A stretch of 32,000 nucleotides of DNA from Tannockella kyphosi (GCF_021054785.1 NZ_CP088239.1:1500001-1532000), one strand, 5' to 3'; shown: positions 11,563 through 25,609, counted from the first letter of the stretch. Notes: generated from the sequence alone by a model not told the origin. Numbers and translations: made by a program.

Positions 11563-12477
11563 TTACTCCCAGTTTACAAAACAGACCTCTGTATGTAAAT
11601 CTACATCAAATTTTTCTTTTACCATTCTTTGAACATAACTAATAAGGGCACGAATATCACTTGCAGTCCCTTTTTTATCATTCACTATAAAATTAGAATG
11701 CTTCAACGAAACACTAGCACCACCAATACGATAGCCACGTAATCCACATGCATCTATATAATACCAAGCACCCTTTTCATCCGGGTTACGAAAAATACTT
11801 CCCGCACTTGGTTTATCCCAAGGTTGTGTTTCCATTCTTCGTTTTTTTCTTTTTTCAACAACTTCTTTAATTTCAGTCGCATCTTTTTTTGTTAAATTAA
11901 AACAAACCTCCAAAATAGTCCATTCCGGATGATTTTGGAAAATAGAATGACGATAACTAAAATCTAGCTCTTGATTTTCCTTTTCAACAATATTTCCTTG
12001 TTCATCTAAATAGCTAACTCGTTTTACTACAGATGCCATATCATATTTATAGGCTCCAGCATTCATATAGATTGCTCCACCTACTGTTCCTGGAATACCA
12101 GACATAAACTCAAAACCACTCAACCCTGCATTTTGGGCATGATACGCTAATGGAATTTGTGACATCCCAGCTCCACAAGTAATCGTAGTATCCACTATTT
12201 CATAATAAGAGAAATATCGCTGTAACGATAAAACAACTCCCTCATATAATTTATCACCAAATAATATATTTGATCCTTTACCCACTATAAAATAAGGAAT
12301 ATGATGCATCTTACAATAAGCTAACACATAAGCTAATCCCGCTTTATCTTTTATCTCAATATATAAACTAGCAATTCCACCAGCCTTAAAAGAAGTATGC
12401 TTCCCCATTGATTCATTCACCAACACATCCCCTACTTCTTGTTTATCAAATTCATTTTTAACACTTAAAAAATCCAT
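11563..12477 (-). CDS. murB: UDP-N-acetylenolpyruvoylglucosamine reductase
   Basis: FAD-binding N-terminal domain (FKAGGIA, VGKGSN) and a C-terminal GSIFRNP / IGGA.VS..H.NFIVN motif. Confidence 0.95.
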   Translation of the reverse strand: MDFLSVKNEFDKQEVGDVLVNESMGKHTSFKAGGIASLYIEIKDKAGLAYVLAYCKMHHIPYFIVGKGSNILFGDKLYEGVVLSLQRYFSYYEIVDTTITCGAGMSQIPLAYHAQNAGLSGFEFMSGIPGTVGGAIYMNAGAYKYDMASVVKRVSYLDEQGNIVEKENQELDFSYRHSIFQNHPEWTILEVCFNLTKKDATEIKEVVEKRKKRRMETQPWDKPSAGSIFRNPDEKGAWYYIDACGLRGYRIGGASVSLKHSNFIVNDKKGTASDIRALISYVQRMVKEKFDVDLHTEVCFVNWE

Positions 12478-13562
12478 TACTTATCTCCTATAATTTTCAA
12501 CATAAATTCATACATATCTTTACTTGCATTCGGTTTTCCCAAACTAAGTGCATTTTGTTTTAACATTTCCAAGATACTTTCATCTTGTATTAATTCATCA
12601 ATTTGATTTGCACAATACTCTCCTGTTAAATCAGCTTCTAATATCATTCTAGCAGCATCTCTCTCCACCAAAGCACGAGCATTAAATTCTTGATGATTAT
12701 AAACAACATAAGGGCTAGGAATAATTATTCCTGGTACACCATACGTTGTAATTTCAGCCAAGGTAGAAGCTCCACCACGACATACAATTAAACTAGTTTC
12801 TTTTAAAACATGTAACATATCTTCAATATAAGGTACTAAGCAAATATTATTTGCTAGTACACCTAACTCATTTTGTAATTGTTCATAATAACTTTTACCA
12901 CTAGCATACAAAATAGTATATGGCTTATTTTGTAACTTTGTGAGAACTTCTTTCATAACCTTATTAACAGAAGCAGATCCTAATGATCCCATTACAATAA
13001 GAACAATTTTCTTATTTCGATCTATTTGATATTTTTCATAAATATCAATTGGTTCTAAATCAATATAACCAGCTCTAGGATTACCATATAAATATGTTTT
13101 TTCTTTTGGTAAAAGATCATATGTTTTTTGATAACAACATACAATTCCATCCACTTTATTAATCAATATTTTATTTGTTAACCCAATCAAAGAATTCTGT
13201 TCATGAATTAACGTTTTTATTTTCATTTGGCTTGCCGCTAAAACAATACTAGCACTCGGATATCCACCAAACCCAACAACAATATCAGGTTTAAATTTCT
13301 TAATTACTTTTTTAGCCTCTACAACAGACTTCACAAAAATCATCCCATTTTTAATTTTTTGAACAGGATTTCCTACAAAACCTTTTACATATAAACCATG
13401 ATACGCATATCCCATTTCAGGTACTACACTTGCTTCTAAACGATCTGTTGTTCCTACAAATAAAAACTCCACATCTGTTCTTTGTTTTTCTATATATTGC
13501 ACAAATGCTAGGGCAGGATATAAATGTCCACCTGTACCACCAGCACTAATTATTATTTTCAT
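12477..13562 (-). CDS. murG: Lipid II-forming UDP-GlcNAc transferase MurG
   Basis: GGTGGHLYPALA G-loop and a GT28 C-terminal domain. Start moved to MKIIISAGG (ATG 13562) because AGGAG (13570-13574) precedes it. The track start at 13583 lies inside a TATAAT box. Confidence 0.95.
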   Translation of the reverse strand: MKIIISAGGTGGHLYPALAFVQYIEKQRTDVEFLFVGTTDRLEASVVPEMGYAYHGLYVKGFVGNPVQKIKNGMIFVKSVVEAKKVIKKFKPDIVVGFGGYPSASIVLAASQMKIKTLIHEQNSLIGLTNKILINKVDGIVCCYQKTYDLLPKEKTYLYGNPRAGYIDLEPIDIYEKYQIDRNKKIVLIVMGSLGSASVNKVMKEVLTKLQNKPYTILYASGKSYYEQLQNELGVLANNICLVPYIEDMLHVLKETSLIVCRGGASTLAEITTYGVPGIIIPSPYVVYNHQEFNARALVERDAARMILEADLTGEYCANQIDELIQDESILEMLKQNALSLGKPNASKDMYEFMLKIIGDK

Positions 13563-13583
13563 AAAATCACTCCTATCCGCCAT

Positions 13584-13592
13584 ATTATAGCA
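13584..13592 (-). promoter_or_regulatory. Candidate extended -10 (TGCTATAAT) for murG
   Basis: The minus-strand TGCTATAAT lies 21 nt upstream of the murG ATG. The -35 is weak and the leader would be only ~15 nt. Confidence 0.3.
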
Positions 13593-13673
13593 TATTCACA
13601 TTTAATTTAATATAGAATAATAATATTCATTTTTTTGCTTATATTCGAAGTTATTTCGTAAATTGTTAGACAT

Positions 13674-13705
13674 TATTTTGTTTTTCATCCCATTTATGCT
13701 ATAAT
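13674..13705 (+). promoter_or_regulatory. Candidate sigma-A promoter of the preQ1-regulated operon
   Basis: TTGTTT, then a ~16-nt spacer, then an extended -10 TGCTATAAT (13697-13705). It ends 15 nt before the riboswitch stem. Confidence 0.5.
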
Positions 13706-13720
13706 CGTCAAGTATTAAAA

Positions 13721-13760
13721 AGACAGTTCGTAACCATCCTGTCTATAAATAAAACTAGGA
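13721..13760 (+). promoter_or_regulatory. preQ1-I riboswitch aptamer
   Basis: AGACAGUUCGUAACCAUCCUGUCUAUAAAUAAAACUAGGA aligns with the B. subtilis queC aptamer AGAGGUUCUAGCUACACCCUCUAUAAAAAACUAAGG. It has a 5-bp P1 (GACAG/CUGUC), a 12-nt loop starting UUC, and an A-rich tail ending CUAGG. Downstream, CUCC(UUUU)AGGAGG could occlude the SD. Confidence 0.8.
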
Positions 13761-13789
13761 CTACTTAGTAGCTCCTTTTAGGAGGAAAA

Positions 13790-14533
13790 ATGAAGAAAGA
13801 ATTAGAAATTGAGATAATGGAAAGATATTCCATTATTAACGAAAAGAACAAAAGAGAAATCGTTCTTTTAAGAGGCCAAGGATGTTCTTGGCGTCGTTGT
13901 CGTTTTTGTGATTATCATTTAGATTTTTCTAGAGATAAAGAAGAAAATATTACTTTAAATCAAAAAGAGTTATCTAAAATAACAGGTATTCATCAAAAAC
14001 TAGAAGTTATTAATTCTGGAAGTTTTACAGAACTACCAGAAGAAACAATGGATCTTATTGAAACAATATGTATTGAAAAAAAGATCAAAGAAGTACATTT
14101 TGAAGCACACTATAACCAAAGAAAATTTATTCCTGCATTACGCCAACGATTTTCTAAAAACAACATTTCCGTTATTATTAAAATAGGAGTTGAAACATTT
14201 GACTACTTATTTAGAGAATCTTATTTAGTAAAAGGTATTCAAACAGATAATCCTAGTGAAATTGCAACTTATTTTGATGAATGTTGTTTATTACAAGGAA
14301 TACCTGGACAAACAAAAGATTCAATGATTCAAGATATTGAAATAGGTTTAACTTATTTTAATCGTGTTTGTATCAATATTATGCAAGAAAATGGAATGGC
14401 TATCAAACCAGATCCAAGCGTTATTGAACTTTTTGTAAAAGAAATATACCCATTATATAAAGAAAATCAAAGAGTGGATATTTTATTAGAAAATACTGCT
14501 TTTGGTGTTGGAGGAGTAACAACAAATGTCTAA
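13790..14533 (+). CDS. Small radical-SAM-type protein (possible queuine-lyase-like salvage enzyme)
   Basis: Cysteine cluster GCSWRRCRFCDY near the N-terminus, read as Cx4Cx2C rather than the canonical Cx3Cx2C. It is the first gene behind a preQ1 riboswitch and overlaps the following transporter gene by 8 nt. Confidence 0.65.
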   Translation: MKKELEIEIMERYSIINEKNKREIVLLRGQGCSWRRCRFCDYHLDFSRDKEENITLNQKELSKITGIHQKLEVINSGSFTELPEETMDLIETICIEKKIKEVHFEAHYNQRKFIPALRQRFSKNNISVIIKIGVETFDYLFRESYLVKGIQTDNPSEIATYFDECCLLQGIPGQTKDSMIQDIEIGLTYFNRVCINIMQENGMAIKPDPSVIELFVKEIYPLYKENQRVDILLENTAFGVGGVTTNV

Positions 14534-15218
14534 TGAATTATTATTAATACTATGTTTAGTATGTACTTATATGAGTGTTTTATTATTTTATCGTTTTTTT
14601 GGAAAAACAGGTTTATATGTTTGGACTGCAATTGTTACCATTAGTGCAAATATCGAAGTATTAATGTTAATCGATGCTTTTGGTGTTGAACAAACATTAG
14701 GAAATATTTTGTTTGCATCTAGTTTTTTAGTAACTGATATTTTATCGGAAAATGAGGATAAAGAGAGTGCAAATCTAGCTGTTAAGATTGGTATTATGTC
14801 GAATATTACTTTTGTGCTTATTTCACAATCATGGTTATTATTCACACCAAACGCAAATGATTGGGTGAGTCCTGCTGTTCATACTATTTTTTCAAATACA
14901 CCTAGATTAATGATTGTTGGGGTTCTTGTTTATGCACTTGCTCAATGGTTTGATGTTTGGGCATATCACCTTATTTGGGAAAAGACAAAAGCAAAGTTTG
15001 GAGATAGTAAAAGAGGTTTATGGCTTAGAAATAATGGTTCTACCTTAGTTTCACAGTTATTAAATACTGTTTTATTTACTTTTGGAGCATTTATTGGTAT
15101 GTATGATATTCCTACTTTAATTAATATTACTATTGCATCTTATGTTATTTATGTTATTACAAGTTTATGTGATACACCTGTAGTTTATTTATCAAGAAAA
15201 ATTAAACCTAAAAACTAA
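14526..15218 (+). CDS. yhhQ: YhhQ/VUT-family queuosine-precursor transporter
   Basis: Six-TM protein with family-typical segments F..SFLVTDILSE...A, LWLRNNGSTLVSQLLNTVLF and a C-terminal DTP..YL. It is under preQ1 riboswitch control. Confidence 0.8.
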   Translation: MSNELLLILCLVCTYMSVLLFYRFFGKTGLYVWTAIVTISANIEVLMLIDAFGVEQTLGNILFASSFLVTDILSENEDKESANLAVKIGIMSNITFVLISQSWLLFTPNANDWVSPAVHTIFSNTPRLMIVGVLVYALAQWFDVWAYHLIWEKTKAKFGDSKRGLWLRNNGSTLVSQLLNTVLFTFGAFIGMYDIPTLINITIASYVIYVITSLCDTPVVYLSRKIKPKN

Positions 15219-15240
15219 AGGGAATATCCCTTTTTTTATT
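15217..15240 (+). terminator. Intrinsic terminator after yhhQ
   Basis: AAAGGGA-ATA-TCCCTTT followed by a T-run, starting at the stop codon. Confidence 0.65.
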
Positions 15241-15304
15241 TACCATTTTAGTTGCAAAACAAGAATAATCTATGTACAATACTTAAAAAGAAAAGGAGTA
15301 TTCT

Positions 15305-15850
15305 ATGATTGATGAAATTATTTTATTTAATGAAAATTTTGTAAAGAACGAAAAATATAAAGACTTTATTACCAATAAATATCCTAATAAGAAATTAGCG
15401 ATTCTCTCATGCATGGATACCCGTTTAACTAAATTACTTCCTGCTGCTTTAGGTTTAGAAAATGGCGATGCTAAAATCATTAAGAATGCGGGTGGTGTTA
15501 TTTCACATCCCTATGGTAGTGCTGTTAGAAGCATACTAATTGCAATCTATCAACTAGGCGTGACTGAAATTATGGTAATTGGTCATAGTGATTGTGGTGT
15601 TCAACATCTAGATAGTCAAAAACTAATTGATTCGATGATAAAACATGGGATTGAAAGCAGTGTTATTGAAAATGTGAAAGCTAGTGGGATTGATTTAGAA
15701 GGTTGGCTGGGAGGCTTCTCTAATGGGGATGCGGCAATTACAAATACTGTCCAATGTTTACAGTCACATCCATTAGTTCCAAAAGATATCCTTATTAAAG
15801 GCTTTATCATGGATTCATTAACAGGATTGCTTCAAGAAGTAAACAAATAG
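15305..15850 (+). CDS. Beta-class carbonic anhydrase
   Basis: Zinc ligand motifs CMDTRL and GHSDCG in a ~180-aa protein. Confidence 0.85.
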   Translation: MIDEIILFNENFVKNEKYKDFITNKYPNKKLAILSCMDTRLTKLLPAALGLENGDAKIIKNAGGVISHPYGSAVRSILIAIYQLGVTEIMVIGHSDCGVQHLDSQKLIDSMIKHGIESSVIENVKASGIDLEGWLGGFSNGDAAITNTVQCLQSHPLVPKDILIKGFIMDSLTGLLQEVNK

Positions 15851-15888
15851 GATTCTTTTATGATGCAATTAAAACATTCCTTTTCATT

Positions 15889-15979
15889 TTATTTCATAAC
15901 ATTTAACATACTACCTACAACAACAAGTGTAATTATGAAAGAGGATCTCCTATAACTAAATAGCGGGTGCAATGGTAGC
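15889..15979 (-). pseudogene. Diverged orphan copy of the ftsW 3' end (old att-site remnant)
   Basis: About 80% identical by eye to 23159-23254. The minus strand reads LPLHPLFSYRRSSFIITLVVVGSMLNVMK*, compared with [28 protein letters not shown] for the real FtsW. No upstream ORF is present. Confidence 0.6.
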
Positions 15980-16032
15980 TTAGGTCTCTTTTTTAGCTTC
16001 TTTATAAAATATCATTTTCATTTATTTCAGTT

Positions 16033-16307
16033 ACCAAGAATACAGAACAGCTTCATAAGATAGTGTTGATTGTTTTTTAGTAAATGGGTATACTATTGGT
16101 GAGGTTAAGTGGATTAACTTAAAAAAAGAGTTCTTGCTGGATCTCTTTTTTCGTTCTTTCGAACTAATCGTTAGAAGCAAGACGAATCAAGAACCAGTAA
16201 TCTTTTATGATAACTATAATCAAGACTCCTAGTCCAAACTTGACATCCAACATATATGTTTTAGTTATAATATTACTCTTCATTCTAACTAGAATTATTT
16301 AACCTAC
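16033..16307. repeat. Degenerate type I TA-like unit, copy 1
   Basis: Plus-strand TTGATT-17-TATACT (16066-16094) and an imperfect terminator (~16125-16151). On the minus strand the peptide ORF is reduced to a stub after SD-CTTGATT and the TGGTATAAT toxin promoter is absent. Confidence 0.55.
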
Positions 16308-16590
16308 AAAAAATTCAGAACAGCTTCACAAGATAGCGTTGACTGTTTTTTAGTAAATGGGTATACTATTAATGAGGTAAGGCGAATTACCAATAAAAAA
16401 GAGATCGGGCAGATCTCTTTTTTCGTTCTTTCGAACTAATCGTTGGAAGCAAGGCGAATCAAGAACTAGTTATCTTTTTAGAATAATTGCAATCAATACT
16501 CCTAATTCAAACTTGACCTCCAACATAACATGTTTTTAGTCATAATATTGCCCTCCATCGACTGTCAATATTATACCATATTTGATTGAT
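16308..16590. repeat. Type I TA-like unit, copy 2 (sRNA side intact, peptide ORF deleted)
   Basis: TTGACT-17-TATACT (16339-16367) and terminator AGAGATC-GGGCA-GATCTCT (16394-16424). The minus-strand TGGTATAAT (16570-16578) and AGGAG are retained, but ATGGAACTACTTATTGTGGTTCTTGT is missing between the two ATTGATT repeats. Confidence 0.6.
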
Positions 16591-16631
16591 CGAATGTTTA
16601 ATTTCAAGCCTAATTCTACAACTATTATTAC

Positions 16632-16880
16632 CTAAAAACAGTTCCCTTGATATTGGTCTAGTAGTAGTACTAGGCCTCTTTTCTTTAGTCTATCGTTCGT
16701 TACAGTATTACACATGATATATGCCATGGCAACTCGTGCGTATGCTTTTCTACTATTTGCCCATTCCCATGCTTTATATTTGTTTGCTCCTAGTTTTATT
16801 AGTGCTCTATATTTTGTACCTATTCTTTTCCATTGTTTCCATATGCACATCCTAAGTCTAAACCGTGTACGTGTGGCCGC
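16632..16880 (-). pseudogene. Group II intron reverse transcriptase/maturase, C-terminal fragment only
   Basis: RLRMCIWKQWKRIGTKYRALIKLGANKYKAWEWANSRKAYARVA...NDRLKKRGLV matches the conserved C-terminal (X/maturase-distal) region of bacterial intron-encoded proteins. No RT domain lies upstream and no domain V/VI RNA lies downstream. Confidence 0.65.
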
Positions 16881-17188
16881 AATAAACTGGACAGTTATTA
16901 TAAATTAATAATAACTGAAAAGGAGGCTCTAGAAGCAGACGAGAAAGACATATTTTTACAACTGCATTTAAAAAGCAAATGGTTGATTTGCATCACGGTG
17001 GTAAACACACTCGGGCTGTCGTTATAGGAGAGTATCATTATTTGATTATATTTAGATGATCGTACTTGAAACATTTATACACTTTTCAATAATCTCTGGA
17101 GACTTAAAACATCCCCTCATATATATACCTACAAAAGGTGAGCAAGTTGACCGAATTATTTTTAACTTTAGTAGCATAATTGAAATAT

Positions 17189-17204
17189 TATCATAATTAT
17201 GATA
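17189..17204. promoter_or_regulatory. 16-bp perfect palindrome overlapping the phd promoter (candidate operator)
   Basis: TATCATAATTATGATA lies between TTGAAA and the -10-like TAATAA, 22 nt upstream of the antitoxin ATG. Confidence 0.45.
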
Positions 17205-17226
17205 ATAACAAAAGGAGATGATAGCT

Positions 17227-17514
17227 ATGCCAAAGATTAGACCGGTTTCAGATTTAAGAAACAATTTTACTGATATTTCAAGAATTATTCATGAGGAATC
17301 AGAGCCTATCTTTTTAACTAAAAATGGTTATGGTGATATGGTTGTAATGAGCATTGAAGCTTACGAAAAACTCCAATTTGAAAATGAAATTTATTTCAAA
17401 TTGAAAGAAGCAAAATTACAAGCAAAGAGTACTGATATAAGATATTCTCATGAAGAAGTTTTCGGAGATTTAAGAAAAAAACTCCAAGATAAGGTAGACA
17501 TAGATGACATATAA
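17227..17514 (+). CDS. Phd/YefM-family type II antitoxin (copy A)
   Basis: MPKIRPVSDLRNNFTDISRIIHEESEPIFLTKNGYGDMVVMSIEAYEKL is the Phd/YefM fold signature. Start set at MPKIRP to match copy B. It differs from copy B at only two residues. Confidence 0.8.
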   Translation: MPKIRPVSDLRNNFTDISRIIHEESEPIFLTKNGYGDMVVMSIEAYEKLQFENEIYFKLKEAKLQAKSTDIRYSHEEVFGDLRKKLQDKVDIDDI

Positions 17515-17672
17515 AATACAATATCTACCAATTGCAAGAGAAGATATTGAACAGTCAGTGATTGTTTGTATGCACCTAAAGCAGCATTAGATTTACTTGA
17601 CAACATAGATAAAACTATAGACAACTTAAAAACCTTTCCAATTGCATATCCAGTCAATGAAACCTCTTGATA
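17504..17672 (+). pseudogene. ParE/RelE-family toxin remnant (frameshifted and 3'-truncated)
   Basis: The ATG overlaps the antitoxin stop. It starts MTYKIQYLPIAREDIEQ and shares the frameshift seen in copy B. Relative to copy B, the segment from TTTGAATATCG through CAAATACTCCAA (C-terminal two thirds) is deleted. Confidence 0.65.
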
Positions 17673-17805
17673 AGGCATTGATAAATTGAATAAAGTTACT
17701 TTACAAGCAAATATTTTCATTCTACACCAAAACTTATGGGCAATTTAAAATTCTGAAACTATAGATGAATCAAGCTCTTTGAAGAACTAAATAAGCAGAC
17801 CTAAG

Positions 17806-17840
17806 AAACACCGTAAATTCCAAGTTTACGGTGTTTTATT
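17806..17840 (+). terminator. Hairpin/terminator at the end of the Phd/ParE block
   Basis: AACACCGTAAA-TTCCAAG-TTTACGGTGTT followed by TTATT. In the cargo-less copy (22621-22643) only the 5' arm, the loop and TTTAC survive. Confidence 0.5.
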
Positions 17841-17952
17841 AGGCACTATAAATTAATTTTTTAAACCCCACTTACGTTTAAAGCACTAATGTCCTATTAA
17901 CTTTACGACAATTAGTGCTTTATTATTTTATGATTACTATTATACTTATCTT

Positions 17953-19107
17953 TTAAAATTTATCCCAAATCAAATACAACGCTAATAATGGCCCATTTTC
18001 ATATCCTTGTTCTGGATACTCTTTTTGCAGTTTGTAAAATTGCTTCAATAACAACTCCGAAAACTGCACTTCCCTCTTAATTCCTAATACTAGACAAACC
18101 ATAGATCGTGCTATTGGATATTTGATTTCCTCTATATTTTTTGTTAAATCCTCCACATATTTAGCATCTGAAATAGCTAATGCTAATGTGGCTATTTCAA
18201 CAAATTCATCTTGTCTATTATTTTTAATTTGCTTTAAAACAAGAGGTATAATTTGTTCTTCCATGGATGAAACTTTCTCTAATATATTTTCTCTATTTAT
18301 TACTATTGTAGATTTACGCATACATCTAATCAATTCTTTGGGGCAAGTAATCTGCATAATCGATGCTTTATCTTTCTCAATTTCCAATATTCTTTCTTCA
18401 TCTAAGAAGGGGAAGGTCGCTTCGTCAAGAAGATGCTTAAATTCATGGCTTCTCATCATAATTAAATTCAAATATAGGATCATAGCTGATGAGCTTTCTT
18501 CCAATTTATTTTGTTCAAAGAACTTTGCTGGTATACAAACCTTTTCGTAACTTTTCTTTTCAGCGAAAATCTTTTCCTGAAATCTATGAATAATATCTTC
18601 TGCAACTTCTCCTGGCAATCTTCCGTTTATGTTTATCTTATTTCTGATATTTTTAAATGCTGGTTTGTAATAATTAATATCTTCTTGAATGTCTTGCAAA
18701 TAATGCTCCTTGTGCTTATTTTTATAATCATCATCAATATAGCAATGATCATTTTCATCTGAAAATACTAATCTATCAAATATATTTGTTACACTATCTT
18801 GTAATTCTATTGCTATAGTATTAGCCCATAATAGATATCTATCAAATACACTCGCATACACAATAGGGCTAATTGCAATTACTTTATTCTGTTCTTTTGA
18901 TTTCATTAATAAATCTAAAACAACACCCTTTTTCTGATCACGTTCTAATTTATCTGGAATATTATTTACAAATTCTTCCAACGTTGTTCCATAATAAACT
19001 GTTGTTTCGTAATCCAAATCATAAAATTTATATCCTATTTTTTCAGCTAGTACTTCACCCGTTGTTGTCTTTCCTACATTTGTAATGCCAAGCAGTAAAA
19101 TTATCAT
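17953..19107 (-). CDS. P-loop protein: N-terminal shikimate/adenylate-kinase-like module plus ~200-aa helical C-terminal domain, function unknown
   Basis: Walker A LLLGITNVGKTTTGEVLAEKIGYKFYDLD at residues 4-32 in a compact kinase-like ~180-aa module. The C-terminal half looks helical-repeat-like. A GAGGTG RBS lies 6 nt upstream, and the start is 36 nt after the SEC-C gene. Confidence 0.6.
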   Translation of the reverse strand: MIILLLGITNVGKTTTGEVLAEKIGYKFYDLDYETTVYYGTTLEEFVNNIPDKLERDQKKGVVLDLLMKSKEQNKVIAISPIVYASVFDRYLLWANTIAIELQDSVTNIFDRLVFSDENDHCYIDDDYKNKHKEHYLQDIQEDINYYKPAFKNIRNKININGRLPGEVAEDIIHRFQEKIFAEKKSYEKVCIPAKFFEQNKLEESSSAMILYLNLIMMRSHEFKHLLDEATFPFLDEERILEIEKDKASIMQITCPKELIRCMRKSTIVINRENILEKVSSMEEQIIPLVLKQIKNNRQDEFVEIATLALAISDAKYVEDLTKNIEEIKYPIARSMVCLVLGIKREVQFSELLLKQFYKLQKEYPEQGYENGPLLALYLIWDKF

Positions 19108-19143
19108 ACATTCACCTCAGTCTACGATAAGGTAAACCTTATC

Positions 19144-20550
19144 TTATTTTTTACAACACTTTTTATACTTTTTTCCACTCCCACATGGACAAGGTTCATT
19201 AGGAGATATTTTTGTTACTTTTCTTTCAACTCCCTTGTTTGTCCCAGTAGAATACGACATCATAGGAATAATACTTTCAGACCTTTCTGAATCAATATTC
19301 TTCTTTAACATTTCAGTCGGTGTGTGTCCGCAATTACGCCATATTCTAGTCGAATTCATTATCTCTATTATATAACTCACGACCTCATTTGCTTGATTTA
19401 TATCTTTCATTAGTATGTCAAATTTTTCCAATTGTGCAAAAACATACTGAATACATCCCTCGGAACTACCACCATATTCCATTAATTCAGCATCAAAAAT
19501 GAACTCATGAATTCCATCTAGGATGTAATCTATATAATCTATGGCTTGCATTTCTCCTTGGTTCGCCGCTTTCTTAAAGTTCTTCATATATTTGCGCTCT
19601 AAATACCTCACAAATCTTTTTTCTGCAATGTTTATTTCTCTATAACTTGCATCAGCATACCTTAAAAATTCTATTCTAGACGGGATATATCGCTCATTCT
19701 CTGCCGATTCCCAATACAATTCACGGAAATACGAAGTTGCTCTTTTATAAAAGAATTCGTCTAAATGTTCTTCTGTAATCTCTGTATTTTTGTTACGAAG
19801 GAACCTAGCCATTTTTTCTATTTCCTTTTCAAGTTGCTCTCTAAAGCATTCATGTAGAATCAGTCCATCCATAGTCATACACACCCCTGGTATCATATTT
19901 CCAATTATGTTACTAAGGACTGCTGTGCACATATGCTTTGGGTTAAATACGATTGAATGAGCGTATTTCCCACCCAAACGTATATATCCATCTTCTTCCC
20001 ATATTTTCTTTTCATATTGCCTTATCAACGACTCTAATTCTTTAACATGAATTACACCATATAAATGAACAGCTGCCAATGCATATTGTCGAATCATATC
20101 TACGTATGCTTTACGTTTCATATATACCTTATCAATCGCTAAGATATCATAATCTTCTTGACATCTGTAAGATTCTAATAATCGCCTTATTTCATCATCA
20201 TCGAAACCTATAGTTATACAAAAACATTCAAAAATAGCATCCTCGCCTAACGCCTCTGCAATTAAGTTTATTTTTTCCTGTTTTTTTAATTTGTATGGAT
20301 TGTCGGCCATTTCACAAATTCTTCTACAGATTTCTAAAGCTGCTTCATCTAAAAAATCATATTGAGACTCAACAAACATCATAGATGTTTGTTCCGCTAC
20401 TATCTCTAGAAATTCATTTTTAGTCCCTTGTACCAATTCTCTAATATCACAATTCTTCTCAATAACCTGTACTACAATAGTCAGTAACTTATCAATATCT
20501 TTTGCATAATATTTCATTAAGCAATTCTGTATTTTATCTTTTCTACTCAT
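19144..20550 (-). CDS. SEC-C-motif (SecA-type zinc finger) protein, function unknown
   Basis: 468-aa protein whose composition looks predominantly helical, ending EPCPCGSGKKYKKCCKK. I recognise no catalytic motif. Confidence 0.65.
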   Translation of the reverse strand: MSRKDKIQNCLMKYYAKDIDKLLTIVVQVIEKNCDIRELVQGTKNEFLEIVAEQTSMMFVESQYDFLDEAALEICRRICEMADNPYKLKKQEKINLIAEALGEDAIFECFCITIGFDDDEIRRLLESYRCQEDYDILAIDKVYMKRKAYVDMIRQYALAAVHLYGVIHVKELESLIRQYEKKIWEEDGYIRLGGKYAHSIVFNPKHMCTAVLSNIIGNMIPGVCMTMDGLILHECFREQLEKEIEKMARFLRNKNTEITEEHLDEFFYKRATSYFRELYWESAENERYIPSRIEFLRYADASYREINIAEKRFVRYLERKYMKNFKKAANQGEMQAIDYIDYILDGIHEFIFDAELMEYGGSSEGCIQYVFAQLEKFDILMKDINQANEVVSYIIEIMNSTRIWRNCGHTPTEMLKKNIDSERSESIIPMMSYSTGTNKGVERKVTKISPNEPCPCGSGKKYKKCCKK

Positions 20551-20829
20551 TTTTTACACCTATTCTTTCTTTTTATTTACGCATCACCCCTTGGTGATAA
20601 ATTCATATTCGTTGTGAATATGTGCTTCCTTTTTCATATCTTCATACTAACAAAAACATCAATTTAACAAATCAGCTAACACGCTAGCTTTTAAAACTTC
20701 TACCTTCCCAAAATACGAGAATGATATTACATATTCTACTTTATCAAAGCTATTCTCATTAATCAAGTATATAAGATCACTTCACCAAATCGTATTGACT
20801 ATTTATTAATAAATGGATATACTATTGGT

Positions 20830-20879
20830 GAGGTTAAGTAGATTAACTTAAAAAAAAGAGATCGGCCGATCTCTTTTTT
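20830..20879 (+). ncRNA. Candidate type I antitoxin sRNA (copy 3)
   Basis: Promoter TTGACT-17 nt-TATACT (20795-20823). The 20-nt perfect palindrome AAGAGATCGGCCGATCTCTT (20856-20875) plus a T-run ends the transcript after ~50 nt. Nt 20830-20845 can pair with the toxin mRNA at 20902-20917, including two G-U pairs. Confidence 0.5.
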
Positions 20880-20921
20880 CGTTCTTACGAACTAATCGTT
20901 GGAGGCTAAGTAGATCAAGAG

Positions 20922-20978
20922 CTAGTTATCTTTTATAATAACTATAATCAATACAAGAACCACAATAAGTAGTTCCAT
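20922..20978 (-). CDS. Candidate type I toxin, 18-aa hydrophobic peptide MELLIVVLVLIIVIIKDN (copy 3)
   Basis: Extended -10 TGGTATAAT (21058-21066) and AGGAG (20987-20991) 8 nt before the ATG. It converges on the sRNA terminator. The identical peptide is encoded at 22885-22941. It is below the ORF-track size cutoff. Confidence 0.5.
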   Translation of the reverse strand: MELLIVVLVLIIVIIKDN

Positions 20979-21195
20979 AATCAATACTCCTAATTCAAAC
21001 TTGACCTCCAACATAACATGTTTTTAGTCATAATATTGCCCTCCACCGACTGTCAATATTATACCATATTCGTACGATGAAAAGAGTCTTTTCAATGATA
21101 ATTCGTTCACTATTTTTTATAAATTTATCAACTAAAAATAGTTTCCTTTATATCTAAGAAATCTTATTGATTTCTTCTTTTTTTATACAAAAATA

Positions 21196-21291
21196 TTAAT
21201 TTTGTTTCATAACATTTAACATAATACCTACTGCAATAAGTGTAATCGTTAAAGAAGATCCACCATAACTAAAAAATGGTAAAGTGACGCC
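21196..21291 (-). pseudogene. Exact orphan duplicate of the last 96 nt of ftsW
   Basis: Identical by eye to 23159-23254 (codons for [31 protein letters not shown]). Identity stops abruptly after GTGACGCC at 21291 and 23254. Confidence 0.85.
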
Positions 21292-21300
21292 TGTAACGTG

Positions 21301-21330
21301 TAGTTCACGCTCCCTTTAGAACGTGAACTA
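21301..21330. repeat. 9-bp inverted repeat next to the ftsW' junction
   Basis: TAGTTCACG-12 nt-CGTGAACTA, beginning 10 nt from the homology breakpoint. Confidence 0.6.
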
Positions 21331-21585
21331 GCTATCACACTTAAATCCACATTAAAGAATACTTCTATGTTTCTTTCTTCATCTATTTCTACCTTTGAAT
21401 TAAATCCAATATTAGTTTACGATTAACCTCTTTTAAACTCACAAACTGTTCAATCGTTCTTTTCACTTCATCACAGCTAACAATATTTTTTTGTCATCTT
21501 TTAGTATTTCTAATCTTGTGTTTAGTTTGTTTACTTTGGGGGTGCGGACGTTTTCGTTGATATTTATATCTTGGATAGGCTACAA
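21330..21585 (-). pseudogene. C-terminal remnant of a large serine recombinase (DUF4368-like tail), frameshifted
   Basis: Minus-strand frames read ...NTRLEILKDDKKILL..., then KRTIEQFVSLKEVNRKLILDLIQR, then VEIDEERNIEVFFNV. This resembles the coiled-coil and terminal domain of Firmicute large serine recombinases. It is interrupted by stops or frame changes, and the N-terminal ~400 aa are absent. Confidence 0.4.
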
Positions 21586-21816
21586 AAAACTGGACAGTTA
21601 TTATAAGAGCGACTATTGTTAATGATAACTAAAAAGGAGGCTATAGAAATAGAAGAGAAAGATGTATTTTTACAACTGCATTTAAAAAGCAGCTTGAAAC
21701 ATCTATTCACTTTTCAATAATCTCTGGAGACTTAAAAACTCCCCCTCATATATATATCTGCAAAAGGTGAGCAAGTTGACCGAATTATTTTTAACTTTAG
21801 TAGCATAATTGAAATA

Positions 21817-21834
21817 ATATCATAATTATGATAT
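21817..21834. promoter_or_regulatory. 18-bp perfect palindrome overlapping the phd promoter (candidate operator)
   Basis: ATATCATAATTATGATAT lies between TTGAAA and TATAAT, upstream of the antitoxin at 21867. Confidence 0.45.
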
Positions 21835-21866
21835 TATAATGATAATAACGGAAGGAGCTGATAGCT

Positions 21867-22154
21867 ATGCCAAAGATTAGACCGGTTTCGGATTTAAGAA
21901 ACAACTTTACTGATATTTCAAGAATTATTCATGAGGAATCAGAGCCTATCTTTTTAACTAAAAATGGTTATGGGGATATGGTTGTAATGAGCATTGAGGC
22001 TTACGAAAAACTCCAATTTGAGAATGAAGTCTATTTCAAATTGAAAGAAGCAGAATTACAAGCAAAGAGTACTGATATAAGATATTCTCATGAAGAAGTT
22101 TTTGGAGATTTAAGAAAAAAACTCCAAGATAAGGTAGACATAGATGACATATAA
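21867..22154 (+). CDS. Phd/YefM-family type II antitoxin (copy B)
   Basis: Same signature as copy A, with a GGAAGGAG RBS. Confidence 0.85.
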   Translation: MPKIRPVSDLRNNFTDISRIIHEESEPIFLTKNGYGDMVVMSIEAYEKLQFENEVYFKLKEAELQAKSTDIRYSHEEVFGDLRKKLQDKVDIDDI

Positions 22155-22439
22155 AATACAATATCTACCAATTGCAAGAGAAGATATTGAACAGTCAGTG
22201 ATTGTTTGTATGCACCTAAAGCAGCATTAGATTTACTTGACAACATAGATAAAACTATAGACAACTTAAAAACCTTTCCACTTGCATATCCAGTCAATGA
22301 AACAACAAAACCTCTTGATTTTGAATATCGAATGATACCTGTTAAAAACTATTTAATTTTCTATGTAGTTACAGGAGATATTGTTGAAATTCATAGAGTG
22401 GTATACTCGAAAATGGATTTAACAAGACTACTAAAATAA
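22144..22439 (+). pseudogene. ParE/RelE-family toxin with an N-terminal frameshift
   Basis: ATG 22144 overlaps the antitoxin stop and gives MTYKIQYLPIAREDIEQSV, then stops at 22228-22230. The rest (YAPKAALDLLDNIDKTIDNLKTFPLAYP...YRMIPVKNYLIFYVVTGDIVEIHRVVYSKMD) is in another frame, open from 22191. The C-terminal part is a typical ParE/RelE fold signature. Confidence 0.65.
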
Positions 22440-22788
22440 CCAAATACTCCAAAGGCATTGATAAATTGAACAAAGTTACTTTACAAGCAATTCAAGATGT
22501 TTAAAACGATATTGGTACAAGCAAAGATTTTCATTCTACACCAGAACTTATGGGTAATTTAAAATTTTGAAACTGTAGATAAATCAAACTCTATGAAGAA
22601 CTAAATAAGCAGACCCAAGAAACACCGTAAATTCCAAATTTACTCAACTAACACGCTAGCTTTTGGAACTTCTATGAGAATGATATTACATGTTCACCTT
22701 TACCAAAGATTTTCTCATTAATCAAGTATATAGGATTACTTCACCAGATTGTATTGACTGTTTTTTAGTAAATGGGTATACTATTGGT

Positions 22789-22841
22789 GAGGTAAGATGG
22801 AATTACCAATAAAAAAAGAGATCCTGCTAGATCTCTTTTTT
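22789..22841 (+). ncRNA. Candidate type I antitoxin sRNA (copy 4)
   Basis: TTGACT-17-TATACT (22754-22782) and terminator AGAGATC-CTGCTA-GATCTCT plus T-run (22813-22841). Nt 22791-22805 match the target at 22866-22880 at 13 of 15 positions, and both differences give G-U pairs. Confidence 0.5.
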
Positions 22842-22884
22842 CGTTCTTACGAACTAGTCGTTGAAGGCAAGATGGAATCAAGAG

Positions 22885-22941
22885 CTAGTTATCTTTTATA
22901 ATAACTATAATCAATACAAGAACCACAATAAGTAGTTCCAT
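22885..22941 (-). CDS. Candidate type I toxin, 18-aa peptide MELLIVVLVLIIVIIKDN (copy 4)
   Basis: TGGTATAAT (23021-23029) and an AGGAGG RBS 7 nt before the ATG. The ORF nucleotide sequence is identical to copy 3. Confidence 0.5.
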   Translation of the reverse strand: MELLIVVLVLIIVIIKDN

Positions 22942-23118
22942 GATCGATCCTCCTAATTCAAACTTGACCTCCAACATAACATGTTTTTAGTCATAATATT
23001 GCCCTCCACCGACTGTCAATATTATACCATATTCGTACGATGAAAAGAGTCTTTTCAATGATAATTCGTTCACTATTTTTTATAAATTTATCAACTAAAA
23101 ATAGTTTCCTTTATATAC

Positions 23119-23147
23119 GAGAAATCTTATTGATTTCTTCTTTTTTT
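23119..23147 (+). terminator. Plus-strand intrinsic terminator between the toxin promoter region and the ftsW stop
   Basis: AGAAATC-TTATT-GATTTCT followed by CTTTTTTT. The same element occurs at ~21157-21186. The T-run is on the plus strand only. Confidence 0.5.
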
Positions 23148-23158
23148 ATACAAAAATA

Positions 23159-24232
23159 TTAATTTTGTTTCATAACATTTAACATAATACCTACTGCAAT
23201 AAGTGTAATCGTTAAAGAAGATCCACCATAACTAAAAAATGGTAAAGTGACGCCAGTTATCGGAAAAATTCCAACAACCACACCCAAGTTAATCAATGCT
23301 TGTATTGACAATAATGAACCAATCCCAACTAACAAAAAACATCCAAATAAATCATGACATTCCTTGGCACTAGAAATAATAAGATAAATTAAAAAAACAT
23401 ATAATCCAATTAAAAAAATAGCTCCTATCAAACCAAATTCTTCGCAATAAATAGCAAATATAAAATCAGTTTGAGGCTCTGGTAAATAAAAGTGTTTTTG
23501 AATACTATTATTATAACCAACCCCCACTATTCCTCCAGGTCCAATCGCATACAAAGATTGTATCATTTGAAATCCACTTCCCAAAGGATCGCCAAAAGGA
23601 TCTAAATAAGCAGTTATTCTTTCCAAACGATAAGGAGCCGCTACTATCATCCCAACTAACCCAGCAACACCCCCTAAACCAAGAAAAACAAAATAACGAA
23701 AAGGTAATGGTGTAACTAACAACATAACAACTATACTACTAGCCATCACGATAGCACTACCAAAATCAGGTTGCAACATAATCAAACCAAACCCTATCAA
23801 TATCACAACAAATAAAGCAATTGCATTGCTTATTTTTTTTAATTCCAAATAATACAAATGAATATAACGAGCACTATAAATAATAATACCAACTTTAAAT
23901 AATTCACTAGGTTGAAAAGAAACAATACCAAAATCAAACCAACTTTGTGATCCTCCTCTTGCACTACCAACTCCCGGAATAATTACTAAAATTAATAATA
24001 TAAATGTCACCAACAATAATTTTCTACTATGTACTAAATAAAAATGATAATCTATCTTAGAAACTATAAACATACATACAATCCCAATAAACGCAAAAAA
24101 TAATTGCCTCTTTATATAATAAAAAGAATCTCCAAACTTATAAAAAGCCCATACATTACTAGCGCTATAAACCATACACAAACCAATAAACACAATCACT
24201 AACACTACTCCAATGACTAATCTATATCGCAT
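23159..24232 (-). CDS. ftsW: SEDS-family peptidoglycan glycosyltransferase FtsW (SpoVE position in sporeformer dcw clusters)
   Basis: Ten-TM FtsW/RodA/SpoVE signature ([27 protein letters not shown]) and a position between murD and murG. Confidence 0.9.
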   Translation of the reverse strand: MRYRLVIGVVLVIVFIGLCMVYSASNVWAFYKFGDSFYYIKRQLFFAFIGIVCMFIVSKIDYHFYLVHSRKLLLVTFILLILVIIPGVGSARGGSQSWFDFGIVSFQPSELFKVGIIIYSARYIHLYYLELKKISNAIALFVVILIGFGLIMLQPDFGSAIVMASSIVVMLLVTPLPFRYFVFLGLGGVAGLVGMIVAAPYRLERITAYLDPFGDPLGSGFQMIQSLYAIGPGGIVGVGYNNSIQKHFYLPEPQTDFIFAIYCEEFGLIGAIFLIGLYVFLIYLIISSAKECHDLFGCFLLVGIGSLLSIQALINLGVVVGIFPITGVTLPFFSYGGSSLTITLIAVGIMLNVMKQN

Positions 24233-24271: not shown

Positions 24272-25609
24272 TTATAACTCTCTTATATACTGTTTAAACA
24301 TTTTTCCTCTTTGATCATAACCACTAAACTCATCAAAAGAACTTGTTGAAGGTGATAATAAAATAATATCTTCTTCTTTAGAAACCTCTAATGCTTTTTT
24401 AGTAGCTTCTAATAAATTTTCACAAAGATAACTTTTCTCTATACCCATTTCTTCATAAAATCTTTGTCCTGCAGCTCCAAATGCAATAAAAGTATCTACT
24501 TTATCACGATAAGATTTTAACTCCGTTAAATCTAATCCTTTATCAAAACCACCCATCAATAAAACAACCGGTTTATCAAAAGCCTTTAATGCAATAATAG
24601 TTGCATCACAATTAGTTGCCTTAGAATCATTATAAATCTCTTTACCATCTTTATTCATAACATACTCAATGCGATGTTCTACTCCATGAAACGAAGCAAT
24701 TGCATTTGCAATAACATGATTATCATAACCTAATTGCTTAGCAACACAAGTGGCTATCATACAATTTTGAACATTATGTTTACCAACTACTCTAATATCT
24801 TTTAGATCAATAATCTTTGTTCCCTGATAATAAATAGAATTATCTTTTAAGCAACAATCAGCATCTTGTTCTAAAGAAAAAGTAATCGTAGAACAAGGAA
24901 TAGGATATTGTTTTATATATTCTAAAACCACTAAATCATCGATATTTAACAAAAAAGTTCCTGTTGTTTGATGCTTATAAATATTTGTTTTCGAAGCATA
25001 ATATTCTTCTAAAGAAAGCATATAATCTAAATGATCAGGTGTTAAATTAATAATACTAGAAACATTTGGTGCAAATGTTTCTATATCTAATAATTGAAAA
25101 TTACTCATTTCTAATATAATGGTATGTCCTTCAACTTGTAATAAGTTATGTTCCATAATAATATCACAAAAAGGATAACCAACATTCCCTGCTAAGTGGA
25201 CCTTATCATTGGTAGATTTTAAAATTTCTTCAATTAAATGAACAGTTGTTGTCTTCCCATTTGTACCCGTAATAGCAACATAATTTTGTTCCTTAGCACA
25301 CTGAAAACCCAATTCTATCTCTGTATACACCGGAATATTTCTTTCCTTTAAACGTAAAATAAAAGGCTTTTGATAATTAATTCCCGGGTTTTTTACTACA
25401 AAATCAAAATCTCTTTCAAATAACTCCTCTGGATGTCCTCCAGTAATCATCTCAATTCCTTGATTAACATAATCATCATACTCTTCAATAGATTCTTTTT
25501 TATCAAAAACATTAACTGTAATCGTAGCATTTGTTGCTTGTAATAAGCCAATAGCAGCTCTCCCACTTTTTGCCAGCCCTAATACTAACACTTTTTTCCC
25601 TGTTAACAT
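24272..25609 (-). CDS. murD: UDP-N-acetylmuramoylalanine--D-glutamate ligase
   Basis: N-terminal GLAKSG Rossmann motif, the Mur ligase P-loop GTNGKTTT, and synteny with mraY. Confidence 0.95.
   Translation of the reverse strand: MLTGKKVLVLGLAKSGRAAIGLLQATNATITVNVFDKKESIEEYDDYVNQGIEMITGGHPEELFERDFDFVVKNPGINYQKPFILRLKERNIPVYTEIELGFQCAKEQNYVAITGTNGKTTTVHLIEEILKSTNDKVHLAGNVGYPFCDIIMEHNLLQVEGHTIILEMSNFQLLDIETFAPNVSSIINLTPDHLDYMLSLEEYYASKTNIYKHQTTGTFLLNIDDLVVLEYIKQYPIPCSTITFSLEQDADCCLKDNSIYYQGTKIIDLKDIRVVGKHNVQNCMIATCVAKQLGYDNHVIANAIASFHGVEHRIEYVMNKDGKEIYNDSKATNCDATIIALKAFDKPVVLLMGGFDKGLDLTELKSYRDKVDTFIAFGAAGQRFYEEMGIEKSYLCENLLEATKKALEVSKEEDIILLSPSTSSFDEFSGYDQRGKMFKQYIREL

Follow-up and report, generated by a model that had tools for sequence, protein, structure and literature searches.

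A SEDS gene whose end is repeated ahead of murG

We analysed a 32,000-nucleotide (nt) window of the Tannockella kyphosi genome (NZ_CP088239.1) in which copies of the 3′ end of a SEDS gene, which appears to be spoVE, lie scattered between that gene and murG. Coordinates are positions in this whole window unless a genome position is stated; the genome under study is labelled G000, its relatives G001 and so on, and the loci around gene termini and recombinases L039 and so on. On the other side of the SEDS gene lies murD (24272–25609). From the spoVE stop codon at 23159 to the murG open reading frame (ORF; start 13583) the distance is 9,575 bp. Read along the minus strand, the order is spoVE with its live terminus T1, module A1, module B1, an IS3 fragment, the remnant of a large serine recombinase (LSR), terminus T2, module A2, two cargo genes, module B2, a maturase fragment, the units A3/A3′, terminus T3, a block on the opposite strand and finally murG (Table 1).

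The array was read from the assembly sequence, in which a repeat search and alignment showed that the last 96 nt of spoVE recur at T2 with 100% identity. The exact copies share their starting base, a G at 23254 in one and at 21291 in the other, just ahead of GCGTCAC. Aligned over a longer distance (23254 to 22877 and 21291 to 20914), they are identical at 372 of 378 positions, with no difference in the first 96 nt, the gene terminus; beyond this tract their identity drops to approximately 80–85% over about 230 nt more. The third copy, T3, has 83% identity over 78 nt (15883–15960) and translates as ...LPLHPLFSYRRSSFIITLVVVGSMLNVMK*, a decayed terminus in which RR replaces the conserved GG. A first-pass annotation of the window had described three copies of the gene end, two of them exact and breaking at the same point, about 370 bp of about 98% identity after these copies, and about 9.6 kb between the SEDS gene and murG; each of these observations agrees with the alignments and distances measured here.

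Two features of the array bear on its origin. First, identity along it is mosaic: it is 98–100% over the termini and the proximal part of A, approximately 80% over the distal part of A and 92–95% over B, which points to a recombination joint inside the A module. Second, T3 and T1 share the lineage-specific ending MLNVMK, where those relatives whose sequence was read have ILNISK or VLNISK, and this indicates that the termini were copied within the Tannockella kyphosi lineage. An assembly search found no other assembly encoding the exact spoVE protein of the window.

Table 1. Features between spoVE and murG in the 32,000-nt window, in order along the minus strand.
Feature	Position	Strand	Basis or detail
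spoVE, intact SEDS gene between murD and murG, 357 aa	23159–24232	-	Pfam FTSW_RODA_SPOVE, E 6.6e-106
T1, live terminus	23159–23254	-	starts at crossover GG (23254–23253) within attB-like ATAACT-GG-CGTCAC
A1, putative type I toxin–antitoxin (TA)-like module	22644–23158	-	sequence and promoter/terminator scan
B1, Phd/YefM antitoxin (21867–22154) and ParE-like toxin fragment (22206–22439)	21692–22643	+	PF02604, 1.1e-11; PF05016, 2e-8
IS3-family left-end fragment, 120 nt	21572–21691	+	blastn, 87–92% identity to ends of two genomic copies
LSR remnant, last ~47 codons, one frameshift	21327–21466	-	tblastn against the LSR of G002
attR	21290–21316	-	P arm GAGCGTGAACTACACGTTACA joined to crossover GG (21291–21290)
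T2, first orphan terminus	21196–21291	-	100% identical to T1
A2, second type I TA-like module, putative	20672–21195	-	repeat search, alignment
Putative older-element cargo: SEC-C-motif protein (468 aa), P-loop kinase-fold protein (384 aa)	17953–20550	-	Pfam
B2, IS3 left-end fragment (16905 to about 17064), intact Phd (17218–17514), decayed ParE region	16905–17829	+	
Group II intron reverse transcriptase/maturase fragment, C-terminal only	16648–16873	-	72-residue frame, by reading
A3/A3′, two tandem decayed type I TA-like units, toxin ORF lost	15985–16629	-	
T3, probable oldest orphan terminus	15883–15979	-	decayed; core and P arm deleted
Separate insertion between T3 and the murG promoter	13584–15882	+	Pfam, Rfam
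murG with promoter TGCTATAAT (13584–13592)	12477–13592	-	likely start ATG 13562, AGGAG before it

The target gene is probably spoVE rather than ftsW

The first-pass annotation had called the gene ftsW/spoVE, or simply ftsW, and taken it for an essential SEDS gene. The best NCBIfam match of the gene was the spoVE model TIGR02615, at 398.9 bits (under the cut-off of 448.8), with 374.1 bits on the ftsW model; the two other SEDS proteins of the genome reached just 142–168 bits on the spoVE model. The protein aligns over its full length to its orthologues in genomes in which murD, spoVE and murG are contiguous. Every sporulating genome searched had three SEDS genes, and the same-genus genome G001 had two. 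G001 is without spo0A and spoIVA, and the SEDS gene it lacks is the one in the cell-division (dcw) gene cluster: murD is followed there by murG after 110 bp that contain a terminator and a promoter. This SEDS gene thus appears to have been lost together with sporulation in G001, as would be expected of spoVE from its role in Bacillus subtilis. The best-scoring model, the murD–spoVE–murG synteny and the loss of the gene alongside spo0A and spoIVA indicate that the target is the sporulation paralogue spoVE and correct the idea that an essential division gene is targeted; as such, it would be a typical target for sporulation-gene intervening elements. In Bacillus subtilis, spoVE occupies this same dcw position and is expressed in the mother cell, and by analogy the window gene would be expressed there too.

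Live recombinase elements split spoVE in relatives

We surveyed 81 genomes of the family, counting as LSR orthologues proteins with at least 49% identity, and also examined further metagenome-assembled genomes (MAGs) of Erysipelotrichales. Orthologues were found in eight of the 81 genomes. All eight adjoin an orphan spoVE terminus, in all eight genomes the 5′ part of spoVE reaches no further than about residue 330, and in seven murG directly follows the orphan terminus. Similarly, every MAG whose locus reached past the LSR gene had a spoVE fragment adjoining it, one short contig stopping before the junction. The named records of this LSR come from Massilimicrobiota, Longicatena and Thomasclavelia/Erysipelatoclostridium, all Erysipelotrichales. 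The homologues next in rank are at most 39% identical to the spoVE LSR, and none of them adjoins spoVE. Two genomes illustrate the arrangement: spoVE ends ...PVTG|DTYSS* in the same-genus G002 and ...PVTGVTL|YLRNNFI* in G005, and the missing terminus (residues 325–355) is located elsewhere, directly before murG, next to a protein of 530–546 amino acids with Resolvase, Recombinase and Zn_ribbon_recom domains.

Aligned junctions defined attB as GTTACA-GG-TGTAAC, a palindrome around a non-palindromic GG, situated at spoVE codons ~326–330 (V-T-G-V-T) with crossover at the GG. The LSR uses this dinucleotide in at least eleven genomes besides G000. When the spoVE halves were joined at the GG, the reading frame was restored, at the sequence level, in eight relatives. 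The element-side arms mirror each other, with a ATCGTAAT-type motif on the left and a AATTACGA-type motif on the right, and attP as reconstructed for G002, G005, G034, G088 and G091 has mirror-image P and P′ arms. No intact LSR element carries a copy of the terminus, and the P′ arms encode none. Elements whose ends lie on one contig in direct orientation vary in length from about 3.1–3.6 kb to about 35 kb; the smallest comprise the recombinase and one or two further genes, and an element of 3.6 kb is present in the record of Erysipelatoclostridium sp. AM42-17. The cargo of the elements examined is non-phage and includes a GGDEF-type protein, AbiE, Fic, and TA and Abi modules.

The first-pass annotation proposed looking in relatives for an empty site and for intact recombinase elements at the same site. 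Both exist: in G012, G008 and G004 murD, spoVE and murG are contiguous, with murG within 100 bp of spoVE, and intact elements occupy the site in the eight family genomes and the MAGs. Its assumption that such elements carry a replacement terminus was not supported: the intact LSR elements all leave spoVE truncated at ~residue 330.

Some of these loci differ from the common arrangement. In two genomes (G005:C1:861856-910033 and G092:C114:8086-36923), the 5′ part of spoVE and the block of recombinase, terminus and murG are inverted relative to each other, 48 kb and 29 kb apart, and the segment between them contains murD and the 5′ part of spoVE. With the sites in this orientation, restoration of spoVE would need a recombinase-mediated inversion, not excision. 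In the Erysipelotrichales MAG RGIG6468 (L072, 1377-5540) and in L067, the element is ~3.1 kb long and its recombinase lies next to attL and faces towards the 5′ fragment of spoVE, which is the opposite orientation to that in the other members. This is expected of a palindromic attB, at which orientation is set only by the central dinucleotide. G002 (G002:C40, locus L039, 287-6222; L043, 3398-3481) has two full LSR genes 4.3 kb apart with a third, C-terminal remnant between them, and AbiEii/AbiEi-like genes beyond the pair. The G002 locus shows such stacking at one site with elements that are still live.

A recombinase remnant and an attR junction in the window

The LSR remnant in the window corresponds to residues 481–527 of the 530-residue LSR of G002 (tblastn; 52–54% identity, E 4e-8). 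Relatives' LSRs have all three recombinase domains, and the window retains the last ~47 codons only. The remnant stands immediately upstream of GAGCGTGAACTACACGTTACA-GG-CGTCAC, and this P arm aligns with those of the intact elements, which have the ATCGTAAT-type motif 12–19 nt from the GG. As the aligned arm ends at the same GG as in live elements, the T2 junction is a true attR. The junction in the live gene, ATAACT-GG-CGTCAC, is an attB, not an attL. A search for the mirror-image P′ arm of attP found none anywhere in the window, recovering the P arm itself only, and tblastn found no second LSR remnant near T3 or elsewhere in the window. The window element therefore has neither attL nor recombinase and its spoVE is intact, so that the splitting of the gene and its restoration by excision are not features of this copy. 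We rejected the possibility that other LSRs of the genome act here in trans: they are just 22–35% identical to the spoVE-targeting LSRs and located elsewhere, at 531–532 kb and 688–765 kb. With the LSR C-terminal remnant adjoining T2, the earlier suggestion that at least two elements had stacked at a serine-recombinase att site here, and had then decayed, proved largely right.

Duplicated termini in two other genera

Two relatives show a similar structure. In G075, an intact spoVE is followed by a 195-bp tract that starts at the core and matches, with 96% identity, an orphan terminus located on a different contig, beside which lies a C-terminal remnant of the LSR. In G041, an intact spoVE is accompanied by a decayed orphan terminus directly ahead of murG; the duplication, again starting at the core, is 130 bp at 80% identity, and a perfect P arm (AAGTATCGTAATTGAATTGTTACAGG) precedes the orphan copy. 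No intact orthologous LSR was found in either assembly. Duplicated termini thus occur in genomes without an intact LSR (remnants are left in G000 and G075, and none was found in G041), and a split spoVE goes with a live recombinase. Related genomes are non-independent samples; the three cases of duplication, in G000, G075 and G041, belong to three different genera.

How the array may have formed

We consider it probable that two or more integrative elements of a non-phage kind form a decayed array in the window, inserted serially by the LSR at a single att site in spoVE, and that the terminus was duplicated by an excision-type join combined with an unequal joint. The sequences show the att site, a remnant of the LSR, an attR junction, intact elements in relatives and two parallel cases; the order of events and the route of duplication we infer as follows. 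Insertion of an element would split spoVE. A join of the excision type between attL and attR, giving B-GG-T, would then be accompanied by one joint that is not site-specific, an unequal exchange or tandem duplication that connects sequence downstream of the terminus with sequence in the interior of the element. This irregular joint would probably lie within the repeated type I TA-like A modules, where identity falls from 98–100% to ~80%. The products would be an intact spoVE with a duplicated terminus, a ‘locked’ partial element without attL, and an orphan terminus attached to attR. The regenerated attB could be targeted again, the recombinase, by now useless, would decay, and the cycle would have run twice in the Tannockella kyphosi genome. 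Renewed targeting of attB would account for the serial order, in which the oldest orphan is nearest murG. Because live elements split spoVE and carry no replacement terminus, the live terminus most likely arose in place. The left edges of the copies are normal recombinase products, attB at the live copy and attR at the orphan, and only the right end of the duplicated stretch is irregular.

Several points weigh against this history. The intermediate state, attL plus two copies of attR, was seen in none of the genomes, and the step that is not site-specific has left no visible trace other than the partly homologous A-module joint. The older element is without recombinase, P arm and core, and its LSR origin is suggested by analogy. 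B1 and B2 share a truncated IS3 junction, so part of the array could stem from duplication within the genome rather than from two arrivals. Finally, sporulation-linked excision of members of the spoVE-element family is proposed by analogy.

A different account, to which we give a minor share of the probability, is that each element brought a spoVE end together with a type I TA module, so that the gene stayed intact when they integrated, and that later gene conversion made T1 and T2 identical. Such elements are not what relatives contain, as every intact LSR element truncates spoVE and has a P′ arm that mirrors the P arm instead of encoding a terminus. A site composed of a P arm and a B′ arm (P-GG-T) is moreover an attR, which is not an integration substrate for large serine integrases. 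This account fits the nesting of the orphan termini, the oldest of which lies at the greatest distance from the gene, and gene conversion over a tract that stopped on the left where homology ends, at the core, could have produced the sharp switch from 98–100% to ~80% identity; T3 and T1, however, share lineage-specific residues, and duplicated termini occur only where an intact LSR was not found or just a remnant is left.

It is much less probable still that, with no site-specific integration involved, unequal crossing-over simply duplicated in tandem a segment made up of the spoVE end and the TA modules downstream of it, the recombinase remnant being incidental. Dispersed repeats that could mediate such an exchange are abundant (A modules, B modules and IS3 fragments) and the truncated IS junction common to B1 and B2 would be in keeping with it, but the boundary of the duplication is the very dinucleotide that the LSR uses elsewhere, a P arm and a recombinase 3′ end precede that boundary to form an attR junction that contradicts this origin, and the units differ in content and show three levels of divergence. 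An assembly artefact, in which a single locus was mis-assembled into near-identical 378-bp copies, is the least probable of these accounts, because the copies differ at six clustered positions, their flanks are unique and different, the closed genome is one 2.26-Mb contig, and equivalent structures are present in two other assemblies (G075 and G041).

Modules and cargo between the termini

The A1 module is laid out as an extended -10 promoter, an 18-codon hydrophobic ORF (MELLIVVLVLIIVIIKDN), a bidirectional terminator and a convergent promoter. Three further type I TA-like copies (72–80% identity) lie within 7 kb of one another at genome positions 1684487-1691190, beside no recombinase match. 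We rejected the possibility, raised by the maturase fragment, that the A module is the 3′ end of an intron, as an Rfam search over 12–25 kb of the window gave no group II intron or other structured RNA at E≤1. The B2 module is 92–95% identical to B1 and its IS3 piece is longer; in both, the IS3 fragment meets the Phd region at an identical point. The IS3-family element is present elsewhere in the genome as a full copy (982990-984171) and as one with an interrupted orfB (1810692-1811853). The copy at 983 kb adjoins an open frame that resembles a group II intron reverse transcriptase (motif by eye), which suggests nested insertions of these two types of element. The 226-nt maturase fragment of the window is 93–94% identical to four other, fuller genomic copies; its frame matched no Pfam family, and the Rfam search detected no intron RNA of group II around it.

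The murG promoter and the block ahead of it

A TGnTATAAT-like box stands directly 5′ of murG in all four relatives that were read, G001, G002, G005 (where it is TGATATACT) and G041. As G001 has no insertion, the murG promoter was not created by one. Of the earlier remark on this promoter, the box itself (TGCTATAAT) therefore stands, and its origin as a consequence of insertion does not.

The 2.3-kb block between T3 and the murG promoter contains a weak preQ1-like aptamer, a 247-aa protein without a Pfam family match, a Vut_1/YhhQ transporter and a beta-carbonic anhydrase. The relatives examined do not have this block here, their terminus being directly followed by murG, and the block is thus a separate insertion. 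The aptamer match (Rfam PreQ1, 13718-13764, plus strand) reached 20.5 bits, where the gathering score is 39, and an E value of 0.045 when 261 nt were searched, and a 13-kb Rfam search gave nothing at E≤1 in the same region; the riboswitch named in the first-pass annotation is accordingly a weak candidate. In G060 (G060:C23; L049/L069), no murG lies within 1.4 kb of the orphan terminus, and in G075 (G075:C42; L142), 1.1 kb with a convergent gene separates the two. This spacing suggests that extra DNA, like the carbonic anhydrase block, entered between terminus and murG more than once.

A split spoIVA elsewhere in the genome

Another sporulation gene of the Tannockella kyphosi genome, spoIVA, is split. 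Its parts, at G000:C1:673438-673737 (profile positions 1–99) and 765074-765493 (97–236), share one strand and are separated by 91 kb. Immediately ahead of the 3′ part stand three LSR genes in tandem (760111-764966), and additional LSR genes are located at 688–721 kb. A third spoIVA stump, ridden with stop codons, is at 150725-151087.

Relation to known systems and significance

Intervening elements are known in several sporulation genes: skin in sigK, SPbeta in spsM, vfbin in spoVFB, gin in gerE and yin in yabG (PMC5595907, PMC4191935, PMC10747680, PMC5025042). The spoVE elements resemble them in that the insertion is precise, lies inside what is probably a sporulation gene that, going by Bacillus subtilis, would be expressed in the mother cell, and leaves halves whose joining at the core restores the frame; the live elements of relatives split the gene as skin splits sigK, and their cargo (GGDEF protein, TA and Abi modules) is non-phage, like that of gin. 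This likeness to skin-type elements is drawn from sequence data. They differ in that the copy in the window, without recombinase and attL, cannot excise and has an intact spoVE by virtue of a duplicated terminus, and in that two relatives have inverted sites, at which inversion instead of excision would be needed. A literature search, which left most subscription journals outside, found no report of spoVE as a target of integration or of an intervening element.

The array also recalls the composite islands of staphylococcal cassette chromosomes (SCC/SCCmec), which sit in staphylococci at the 3′ end of rlmH (orfX) with a repeat of ~15–18 nt and never split the gene. As in SCC arrays, serine-recombinase elements stand in tandem near the 3′ end of a conserved gene, copies of the site are repeated and many members are remnants without recombinase. 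The repeats at spoVE, by contrast, are 96 to about 600 nt long and run from the core to past the stop codon, and live relatives split the gene. The best NCBIfam match of the relatives' LSR is CcrB, at 122.7 bits against a cut-off of 900, so far below it that the LSR is not a Ccr orthologue; the second is XisF, at 86.3 bits against 375. XisF belongs to the fdxN element of cyanobacterial heterocysts, in which, as proposed here, the gene that a serine-recombinase element interrupts is required solely after terminal differentiation of the cell; the phylum, the target gene and the developmental programme are different, and by its score the LSR is not an XisF orthologue.

We tentatively propose, at somewhat less than even confidence, that in Erysipelotrichales spoVE serves as a target, so far unreported, of elements that are rearranged during development. 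The mother cell would excise these elements, which are 3 to ~35 kb long; two Thomasclavelia-like genomes would instead invert a 29–48-kb chromosomal segment that includes at least murD and the spoVE 5′ part; and hosts would repeatedly escape this dependence by a ‘lock-in’, in which the gene end is duplicated and attB is restored, opening the way to another insertion. With the elements described here, spoVE, a gene of spore cortex synthesis, and a new bacterial order join the short list of recombinase-interrupted sporulation genes, and the unusually small size of some members (about 3 kb) would make them potential simple experimental models. The window and its two parallels would illustrate a route by which a split host gene becomes whole without loss of the element, and the same route may explain both the nested orphan gene ends and the build-up of toxin–antitoxin cargo at one site. 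Repeated lock-in would then act as a ratchet that builds small islands of defence and TA genes inside the dcw cluster.

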